From: a virus
Taxonomy: Duplodnaviria > Heunggongvirae > Uroviricota > Caudoviricetes
IMG/VR virus record: IMGVR_UViG_2703718801_000009
Coordinates: 1-5,184 of that record
Length of the DNA: 5,184 bases
Direction: 5' to 3' (one strand)
Each line of letters opens with the position of its first letter. Positions within the stretch are counted from its first letter, which is position 1. The position numbers were made by a program, and so were the translations under genes. Positions 40-755 of the stretch are shown in pieces. The notes beneath the pieces were generated by a model. The model had not been told where the DNA came from. It made no database searches and worked only from the letters and a program-made list of their open reading frames with translations.

Positions 40-609
40 ATGAATATGATGGCCGTGCCGTTTCACGGCAACTCTCTTTATGTAGTTAACCATAATGGCG
101 ATCCATACGTTCCCATGAAACCTGTCGTTGCGGGGATGGGGCTGGCCTGGCAATCACAGTTGGCTAAGTTAAGACAGCGTTTTGCGTCAACTATAACGGA
201 AATCGTTATGGTTGCTGAGGATGGGAAACAACGCAATATGGTGTCCATGCCACTTCGAAAACTTGCCGGCTGGCTACAAACCATTAATCCCAACAAAGTA
301 AAACCCGAAATCCGCGATAAGGTCATCCGGTATCAGGAAGAGTGCGACGATGTTCTTTACGAGTACTGGACGAAGGGTTTTGTCGTTAATCCCCGTAAAA
401 TGAGCGTGATGGAAGAACTCAACCAGGCTTGTGCTGACATGAAACGGGATAAAAACATTGCCAGTGTGTTTGCTACCGGGCTGAATGAGTGGAAACAGGT
501 TAAAGCCGCGCATGTATCAAAAATCCGTACGCTGGTAAATGAAGCGAATATGCTGATTGATTTTGTCCTGGCTGATACAGGCAAAGGGAAAATAACAAAG
601 GCGGATTGA
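40..609 (+). CDS. Phage antirepressor-like protein (P22 antirepressor N-terminal-type domain)
   Basis: 189-aa ORF with AGGA about 8 nt upstream of the ATG. The N-terminal segment PFHGNSLYVVNHNGDPYVPMKPVVAGMGLAWQSQLAKL resembles, from memory, the N-terminal DNA-binding domain of P22-type antirepressors. Stop TGA (607-609) overlaps the next ATG. No search was run. Confidence 0.55.
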   Translation: MNMMAVPFHGNSLYVVNHNGDPYVPMKPVVAGMGLAWQSQLAKLRQRFASTITEIVMVAEDGKQRNMVSMPLRKLAGWLQTINPNKVKPEIRDKVIRYQEECDDVLYEYWTKGFVVNPRKMSVMEELNQACADMKRDKNIASVFATGLNEWKQVKAAHVSKIRTLVNEANMLIDFVLADTGKGKITKAD

Positions 610-755
610 TGGGGTGGCTAATGATATCAGATAAACTCATAACGCTGGTGAAGAGCCTCTGTGTACTTGTCGGCATTTCATTTTCACTAATGCTGGTTGC
701 TCTTTTTCTTTCCATGGCCTGGATGGCGTTGACTTCGGCAGGGCTGGTGGGGTGA
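609..755 (+). CDS. Small hydrophobic membrane protein, 48 aa, function unknown
   Basis: Translated by hand (absent from the ORF track): MGWLMISDKLITLVKSLCVLVGISFSLMLVALFLSMAWMALTSAGLVG. Its ATG overlaps the upstream stop in a TGATG junction, which suggests translational coupling. It is almost entirely hydrophobic, with one or two predicted membrane spans. It may be a remnant of a lysis gene. Confidence 0.3.
   Translation: MGWLMISDKLITLVKSLCVLVGISFSLMLVALFLSMAWMALTSAGLVG

Follow-up and report, generated by a model that had tools for sequence, protein, structure and literature searches.

Lysis by phages with a pinholin and an endolysin of the signal-anchor-release (SAR) type can depend on additional small membrane proteins. 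The Mu gp25 'releasin' (DUF2730, PF10805), a protein of 99 aa with one transmembrane domain (TMD), is needed for SAR-endolysin release (PMC9239132), and in the Shewanella phage LambdaSo the pinholin step of lysis has a strict requirement for Lcc6 (65 aa, one TMD), the authors of that study asking whether other lambda-like phages carry such factors (bioRxiv 10.1101/2024.01.23.576932). Pinholin and SAR-endolysin cassettes are present in about 99% of the Shiga toxin (Stx) phages in a survey (PMC8136144). The subject here is a small open reading frame (ORF) at positions 609..755 (+) of a 5,184-nucleotide stretch of DNA (positions 1 to 5,184 of IMG/VR virus record IMGVR_UViG_2703718801_000009, referred to as the window), which is the late region of an Escherichia coli lambdoid prophage of the Shiga-toxin-phage type. 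Judged by conservation among its relatives, the small ORF is shown to be a genuine, independently inherited gene of E. coli lambdoid phages of the Stx and phiP27 types. The best explanation, to which a probability of about 0.45 is assigned, is that it is a non-essential, late-expressed accessory of the lysis cassette that tunes lysis; gp25 and Lcc6 provide precedents for such a role in SAR-endolysin and pinholin lysis.

The small ORF product is similar to these proteins only in part. Both it and gp25 are small membrane-anchored phage proteins encoded near lysis genes, but gp25 is oriented N-out/C-in with a 73-aa acidic cytoplasmic domain, whereas the small ORF product has the opposite predicted orientation, no soluble domain and no DUF2730. 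Compared by architecture alone, it and Lcc6 are both small single-TMD proteins of lambda-like phages with a pinholin and a SAR endolysin; however, Lcc6 has an N-terminal TMD with 43 cytoplasmic residues after it, and its gene is beside xis, at a distance from the lysis genes, whereas the small ORF product is essentially a TMD only and is encoded inside the cassette. The S21 68/71 pinholin/antiholin of phage 21 belongs to the same cassette type, is also small and helical with one face rich in Gly/Ser/Ala, and has two in-frame ATGs, as does the small ORF in the window, but S21 crosses the membrane with two TMDs, ends in a tail of high charge, and has no sequence similarity to the small ORF. The small regulators of the bacterial inner membrane (AcrZ, MgrB, MgtS, KdpF, and CydX) are ~30–50 aa long with a single TMD and almost no soluble part, and bind a larger membrane protein; they differ from the small ORF in being chromosomal and in each having a known partner, and no homology is known.

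Conservation and distribution of the small ORF

The small ORF is 147 nt long, terminates with TGA at 753–755, and encodes a 48-aa product (MGWLMISDKLITLVKSLCVLVGISFSLMLVALFLSMAWMALTSAGLVG). Its length by itself is uninformative (there are 59 ORFs of ≥30 aa in the window), and it is the composition and conservation of the ORF that exceed chance. It is not new, and is already represented in RefSeq, in PHROGs, and in a ribosome-profiling (RIBOseq) catalogue. Many chromosomes of O157, O121, and O145 strains match the segment 560–800 with 100% identity, and the same 147-nt coding sequence is annotated by the Prokaryotic Genome Annotation Pipeline (PGAP) in RefSeq genomes (e.g. L001) as hypothetical protein WP_000539795.1, to which the 48-aa product is identical. 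It also matches PHROG family phrog_4906 ('unknown function'; E=3.9e-28, residues 1–48 on profile positions 2–49 of 49), and phrog_4906, WP_000539795.1, and the RIBOseq entry XECs191 all represent the same protein family as the window ORF. Close variants are present in E. coli Sakai (ECs_5707 in prophage Sp5 and ECs_1966 in Sp10) and in phages BP-4795 (ORF50) and P13374 (ORF53). The initial annotation of this DNA described the ORF as unannotated and of a kind often missed, which is correct for 933W (AF125520) and a large share of the Stx-phage GenBank records, but not for the RefSeq and phage entries above. No papers were retrieved in literature searches for WP_000539795, ECs_5707, ECs1966, or the peptide itself, which was found only in the supplement of PMC5597208.

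BLASTN searches with the ORF alone identify it in 1746 of the 5426 complete E. coli genomes, at a total of 4652 places with up to 11 in a genome, and it is found in 276 phage records. Lack of conservation in related prophages and lack of translation had been named at the outset as what would count against a gene, and neither applies; in addition to this broad conservation, a RIBOseq call (XECs191) is available for a close variant. Outside of E. coli the family is scarcely represented: a protein search returned E. coli entries only, and a scan of one genome per species yielded only a 328-bp 'Xanthomonas pisi' contig, which is probably E. coli contamination, and a chance match in Bacillus. A 17-sequence profile searched against 1.84 billion representative proteins has 29 matches, all of which are to the same family, its fragments, or read-through fusions, and the phrog_4906 family is effectively restricted to E. 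coli phages. The relatives compared below constitute 95 loci (designated by L numbers), among which there are 20 distinct nucleotide versions of the small ORF.

All 20 versions are open, and the sole length change is an indel of one in-frame codon. The boundaries of the ORF coincide with those of a mobile module. BLASTN blocks shared with loci that have other neighbours (L007, L011, L034, and L050) start at 624, just past the start codon, and those shared with L007 and L011 end at 755, the final base of the stop codon. Insertions in the relatives are positioned exactly 3′ of the stop, and include a DNA methyltransferase gene (L011–L014), a segment of ~900 nt (L031), and small ORFs (L007–L010); similarly, two types of Rz 5′ end (the window type and the 933W type) are joined precisely after the stop codon. 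Phage genomes are mosaic, and junctions at gene borders are the expected outcome of selection for intact genes. These exact module boundaries, together with the conserved start and Shine-Dalgarno (SD) sequence described below, make it unlikely that the ORF is a translated remnant, one of the possibilities raised initially. A fragment of a larger gene was rejected, there being no parent protein among the 1.84 billion representatives.

The pooled Nei-Gojobori ratio of nonsynonymous to synonymous changes (dN/dS) is 0.48 in the small-ORF frame, compared to 0.82 and 1.03 in the other two forward frames. Most of the deepest pairs have values of 0.24–0.45 with a synonymous excess (Fisher p=0.0008 to 0.036), suggesting moderate purifying selection (dN/dS about 0.25–0.5 in most deep pairs). 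Weak evidence of translation comes from the RIBOseq study of Huecker et al. 2017, in which the Sakai variant (MMGWLMISDKLITLVKSLCVLVGISFLVMLVAIFFSTAWRVLTLSGLVG) is listed as novel translated gene XECs191 with a predicted inner membrane location and one TM helix (PMC5597208). In LB medium it has 30.0 reads per kilobase per million mapped reads (RPKM) for RNA and 12.6 for ribosome footprints, a ribosome coverage value (RCV) of 0.43, and a coverage of 0.55, relative to thresholds of RPKM 1, RCV 0.25, and coverage 0.5 (PMC5597208). The XECs191 call has the same strand as the lysis genes. The small ORF is very probably a real translated gene, and is assigned to the forward strand and this frame because of the SD conservation, the module boundaries, the operon orientation, and the RIBOseq call.

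Start codon and translation signals

As first reported, the ATG of the hydrophobic 48-aa reading frame overlaps the upstream stop in the sequence TGATG (607–611), with TGA 607–609 ending the 189-aa antirepressor-like ORF and ATG 609–611 starting the small ORF. However, the relatives keep as their start another ATG of the same frame, at 621, giving a product of 44 aa in the window (MISDKL...) and of 43 aa in most relatives (MSDKL...). An ATG of the 609 type is present only in loci with a P22_AR_N gene immediately upstream, and even among these L022 has it out of frame and L095 has a TAG after it. There are three unrelated upstream contexts, each of which has an SD-like motif ahead of the same ATG: ...GGGGTGGCTA-ATG following the P22_AR_N gene, ...AAGGGAGGATTAAGC-ATG following another small ORF, and ...AAGGGGTAAAG-ATG following an ANT gene and spacer. 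The motifs that match the window SD-like sequence (Table 1) in the other upstream contexts are AAGGGAGGA and AAGGGGT. Because ATG 621 is shared across unrelated upstream contexts, the conserved product is one of 43–44 aa, and these comparisons indicate that ATG 621 is the true family start, as opposed to the 48–49-aa database models.

The initial annotation also proposed that the small ORF is translationally coupled to the antirepressor-like gene. The overlap is present in the window, but in about two-thirds of the related loci another gene or sequence lies upstream, and the 609-type ATG is disrupted in some variants. As judged from this comparison, coupling is incidental and no trait of the family.

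Predicted membrane protein

The small ORF product has one strongly hydrophobic segment (residues 16–37 of the 48-aa form), for which the Hessa dG sums to about -2.3 kcal/mol across 19–21 residues; its hydrophobicity is greater than that of the second TMD of the S21 pinholin or of the Rz TMD in the same calculation. AlphaFold2, using the 17-sequence alignment, predicts a single unbroken helix spanning residues 4–40 of the 44-aa form (mean pLDDT 91). The sole charged residues (D8, K9, and K15 in 48-aa numbering) are all N-terminal of the hydrophobic stretch, and the C-terminus (...WMALTSAGLVG) has no charged residue. Because the charged residues are N-terminal to the TMD, the positive-inside rule predicts an N-in/C-out topology, with a cytoplasmic N-terminal segment (MISDKLITLVK), a TMD of ~22 residues, and a tail of ~10 small residues at the periplasm. 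The product is likely to be a single-pass inner-membrane protein. Invariant or near-invariant positions (44-aa numbering) are S3, K5, L6, I7, K11, C14, V15, V17, G18, S20, F21, M24, L25, V26, S31, W34, L37, G41, and G44.

A small protein with one TMD encoded at a lysis-cassette site could belong, whole or as a fragment, to the holins or to a known antiholin family, and a holin fragment was suggested in the initial annotation. Superficially, the in-frame ATGs at 609 and 621 look like a dual start, and there is a match to phrog_13249 ('holin'). However, this is the only holin match, is non-significant (E=0.029), and aligns TMD to TMD; there is no Pfam match at E≤0.1, holin families included, and a scan of NCBIfam gave no match. 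The holin architecture is a TMD followed by a highly charged hydrophilic C-terminus, whereas the small ORF has one TMD and an uncharged C-terminus. The N-terminal extension (MGWL or MEWWL) adds no positive charge, the MGWL form being uncharged, and most relatives either lack the upstream ATG or have it disrupted, which is unlike a dual-start holin/antiholin. The cassette already contains an S21-type pinholin, and the ORF is a self-contained module with no longer parent protein. A holin identity is therefore very improbable, and the fragment proposal is not sustained.

Other lysis protein classes fit no better. The product lacks a DUF2730 match and a soluble domain, is 44–48 aa long, and has its positive residues N-terminal of the TMD, which does not correspond to a releasin. 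Its periplasmic tail of ~10 residues, the sequence KSLC, which is no lipobox, and the presence of Rz and Rz1 as separate downstream genes do not correspond to a spanin. Duplication of the Rz N-terminal TMD was considered and rejected, BLASTN showing no similarity to either Rz 5′ type, although no dedicated protein test was run.

The product is similar in size and hydrophobicity to toxins of the Hok/Ldr/TisB class, and could be a depolarising peptide of the type I toxin kind. Such loci would be expected to stand alone with their own promoter, a structured leader, and an antisense RNA, but there are no promoter-like sites on either strand of window positions 1–1400, no Rfam match in the whole window at E≤1 (antisense RNA and toxin leader families included), and too little space for an antisense locus of type I at the small ORF, which abuts both neighbours and lies inside an operon with intergenic gaps of 0–11 nt. 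A type I toxin is highly unlikely. The initial suggestions of a membrane toxin or an exclusion peptide are, by these sequence comparisons, neither supported nor excluded.

Genomic context within the lysis cassette

The window contains, in order, the antirepressor-like gene, the small ORF, Rz with Rz1 inside it, a KilA-N/ORF11CD3 gene, a phrog_875 gene, a TonB_C lipoprotein gene, a YlcI/YnfO-like gene (-), an HNH gene, and the terminase small and large subunit genes. Close relatives encode a pinholin of 68 aa that is S21-like and an endolysin of 177 aa just 5′ of the position corresponding to the window start, and the endolysin N-terminus (MNAKIRYGLSAAVLALIGAGASAP) is a typical SAR domain. The gene order in these relatives is S21-like pinholin, SAR endolysin, variable morons, small ORF, and Rz/Rz1, such that the ORF does occupy a site where lysis genes are expected, as initially noted. 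The antirepressor-like gene is replaced in relatives by an ANT (PF03374) gene, an ORF of 60–70 aa, or nothing; of the 94 loci with enough sequence, ~25 have P22_AR_N, ~24 have the ANT gene and spacer, and ~44 have a small hydrophobic ORF (ORF 'B') upstream.

The 3′ boundary is more constant. Rz is located 11 nt after the small-ORF stop in ~80 of the 94 loci, overlapping it if GTG 752 is used (alternative start, ATG 767), and the 3′ codons of the small ORF (CTG GTG GGG TGA) form an SD-like sequence for Rz. With the methyltransferase gene downstream the ORF ends with CTG CTG GAG TGA, again an SD, and wherever a gene other than Rz follows, the end of the ORF still offers GGAG or GGGG. The small ORF could be a functionless peptide, either a translated spacer acting in cis, providing ribosomes and an SD to Rz or the next gene once morons had parted Rz from R, or a neutral hitch-hiker. 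This would account for the next gene's SD always being held within the 3′ end and for the stop abutting or overlapping the next start, and it is compatible with the only moderate constraint on the peptide, with one lineage having dN/dS >1, and with conservation of the central 45 nt even at synonymous sites. However, a spacer needs no conserved length, no SD and start in three unrelated contexts, and no set of 15 invariant residues; the hydrophobic helix is retained at 53–58% identity, and the ORF is kept where no Rz is downstream (L099). A spacer or hitch-hiker is quite unlikely.

No forward-strand sigma-70-like site is evident upstream of the small ORF in any of the four contexts, although this was a crude scan and a weak negative. 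Hairpins are present after R in several loci and a terminator-like hairpin after Rz. This organization suggests that the small ORF and the lysis genes share the late transcript, which is Q-antiterminated and starts at the Q-dependent late promoter, and late co-expression with these genes is probable.

A homologous block extends from ~135 nt before the ANT start, through the ANT gene and spacer, and into most of the small ORF in two otherwise unlike cassettes (L099 and L003), which shows that the small ORF can travel with an Ant-type cassette. It could be a moron-type inner-membrane peptide unrelated to lysis, one that binds a host membrane protein or blocks DNA entry by a superinfecting phage, and resembling AcrZ, MgrB, MgtS, or phage proteins of the Sie/Imm type. 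Consistent with this, the ORF is accompanied by Ant-like genes, a DNA methyltransferase gene, and further hydrophobic ORFs of small size where recombination is concentrated between R and Rz, the leader, ANT gene, spacer, and ORF being common to unrelated lysis cassettes; it is present in as many as 11 copies per genome, and RNA and ribosome footprints are recovered from uninduced cultures. On the other hand, there is no promoter-like site of its own on the forward strand in the four contexts, and a search of PADLOC-DB with the small ORF gave 0 families at E≤0.01. The low uninduced signal is consistent with spontaneous induction, and the ORF is packed tightly against Rz in about 85% of loci. 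A moron function unrelated to lysis is considered unlikely, and a lysis-cassette accessory is preferred.

Across the loci, tiny membrane ORFs are concentrated in the R–Rz interval, which is a hot spot for them. ORF 'B' (VTDDISRALAFAIKWVAVGIAVSPMLYGLAKLVIALKS; phrog_1115/4493/3246) is 5′ of the small ORF in some loci and 3′ in others, and has a 28-aa truncated paralogue, and ORF 'C' (WKFLLVWSIPFLWV..LIVAIKG; phrog_6632) is in the spacer after the ANT gene. Families of small hydrophobic ORFs near the small ORF are represented at L011 4804–4986, L101 3546–3728, L008 5096–5251 and 5263–5349, L007 4786–4998, and L099 3861–3998.

Proposed function

We propose that the peptide would reach the inner membrane together with the pinholin, the SAR endolysin, and the i-spanin. 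Once there it might make helix-helix contacts via a conserved face (C14, V17/G18, S20/F21, M24/L25, and W34), or have a mild effect on membrane energisation, either of which could shift the time of pinholin triggering or the ease of SAR-endolysin release; the lesion itself would not be made by the peptide. In Stx phages, lysis timing tuned in this way would influence release of toxin and virions. By analogy with the described systems, a lysis-modulating function of the product is a tentative assignment. More specifically, and more doubtfully, the peptide could be the prototype of a 'TMD-only' trans-acting regulator, in which a helix of 43–44 residues sets the lysis time by co-assembling with the pinholin or SAR domain or by lowering the membrane potential. 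If so, it would represent a third kind of accessory lysis factor beside the Mu releasin and LambdaSo Lcc6, present in ~1/3 of E. coli genomes and setting Stx and virion release.

Several observations weigh against the small ORF being a lysis-tuning gene, some of which concern the coding evidence. The variable sites are distributed nearly evenly across the codon positions (21/15/19), and the L101 lineage has dN/dS >1. This variant (L101 3749–3880, also in L102 and L103; MSGKLTKLAEILWIIACISFSATLAAFLLSMAWMALSSSGLVG) has values of 1.2–2.4 relative to its close relatives with length and hydrophobicity kept, which could be relaxed constraint or diversifying change. The signal for XECs191 is low and barely above thresholds, and derives from uninduced cells and a multi-copy sequence. 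In addition, one minus-strand frame is open in 20/20 versions with dN/dS of 0.49, and because it is equally open with a like ratio, the strand cannot be assigned from dN/dS alone. The corresponding ORF (114 aa; 500–844, -) spans the entire small ORF and could in principle be the true gene. However, it runs into unrelated flanks and is without a conserved start or end, for which reason it is judged to arise as a by-product of how the sense strand is composed; only the forward strand agrees with the SD motifs and the module boundaries, and XECs191 is on the strand of the lysis genes. An antisense gene is, like a type I toxin, highly unlikely.

Other such observations concern the role itself. A divergent member of the family (P0092, 53% identical; L099/L100) is located in a phiP27-like E. 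coli prophage, in a cassette composed of Phage_holin_8, Phage_holin_3_7, a soluble GH108 endolysin, ANT, the small-ORF homologue, and a 51-aa lipoprotein gene, with no Rz called. From this context it follows that no role restricted to the pinholin, the SAR endolysin, or Rz is possible. The lambdoid phages lambda, phage 21, and P22, in which lysis is normal, are not known to have a gene at this position in their lysis cassettes, and the small ORF therefore cannot be essential. It also has no extramembrane domain, unlike gp25 and Lcc6.

The small ORF is a conserved membrane peptide inside the lysis cassette of stx1 and stx2 phages that is carried by about 1/3 of complete E. coli genomes, with up to 11 copies per O157 genome. 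A role in tuning lysis timing would make it relevant to the release of Shiga toxin; otherwise it would be a further small membrane protein of the moron type.

The lipoprotein gene following the small-ORF homologue in the phiP27-like prophage (L099 4167–4322) encodes a predicted product of 51 aa (LVAILVPFLLVGC|VSLDKAHQLFDTASQVCEIVDGVRQCMQN; phrog_7528), and no Rz/Rz1 is called between the endolysin and the HNH/terminase genes of L099. A miniature two-component spanin formed by the small-ORF homologue and this lipoprotein was rejected, the periplasmic parts of both being far too short.

Other features of the window

Table 1. Positions of the small ORF, its translation signals, and the adjacent genes in the window.
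Feature	Coordinates	Strand	Description
Antirepressor-like gene	40..609	+	189 aa; Pfam P22_AR_N E=3e-45, ORF11CD3 E=5.5e-6; phrog_524
Small ORF, RefSeq model	609..755	+	48 aa; ATG within TGATG overlap with upstream stop
Conserved core ORF	621..755	+	44 aa; ATG common to all family members
Shine-Dalgarno-like GGGGTGG	611..617	+	3 nt 5′ of ATG 621; read from sequence
Small ORF final codons CTGGTGGGGTGA	744..755	+	SD-like GGTGGGG and stop, immediately 5′ of Rz start
Rz 5′ part (TMD)	767..913	+	ATG 767; frame lost after 831, stops 913
Rz 3′ part	832..1155	+	Phage_lysis PF03245 E=1.1e-35; other frame than 5′ part
Rz1 o-spanin lipoprotein gene	917..1102	+	Within Rz, intact; PF06085 E=2.3e-20

The window Rz gene is interrupted by a 61-nt frameshifting deletion with its junction at 831/832, as seen by alignment to L001, 933W, and L050; Rz is intact in L001 (Table 1). 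This junction is present in no complete E. coli genome of the collection, in which the best matches are in two pieces with 95.6% identity. The window prophage is probably without a functional two-component spanin.

A conserved leader of ~110 nt (…GAACCTTTCAGGATGAGCC…GGGCTGGTTATTCCTGTGCG.CAAGGTTCATCACTAAAAGGAA-ATG) is located ahead of P22_AR_N ant, KilA-N, Rha-like, and ANT genes, at positions 1–44 and 1270–1357 of the window, 2926–3041 and 4290–4402 of L002, 4100–4213 of L003, and 3100–3213 of L099. RNAalifold pairs a 5′ segment (CCTTTCAGGATGA) with a 3′ segment (TCATCACTAAAAGG), which would sequester the SD, with one compensatory pair only, and no Rfam match to the leader was found. This leader may act in cis as a regulatory element common to these genes, or may mark a hot spot at which morons of the Bro/KilA/Ant type recombine.

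The TonB_C gene (2545–2874) encodes a 109-aa predicted lipoprotein with a lipobox (LVMGC) and a C-terminal TonB_C domain (Pfam E=5e-15; TIGR01352); it is filed by PHROGs under 'Rz-like spanin' (phrog_1267), an apparent mislabel. That such a prophage lipoprotein might interfere with TonB-dependent receptors is speculation. The YlcI/YnfO-like (DUF3950) gene (3006–3266, -) and the HNH gene (3248–3613, +) have a 19-nt head-to-head overlap. An octamer (ATGTTAAC) occurs five times (three +, two -) within 120 nt at 3707–3828, 5′ of the terminase small-subunit gene, compared to 0.15 expected by chance, with 0/200 shuffles reaching five; these repeats may be putative binding sites for terminase or an accessory protein near cos. 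The HNH endonuclease gene is directly 5′ of terS/terL, as in HK97-like cos phages.

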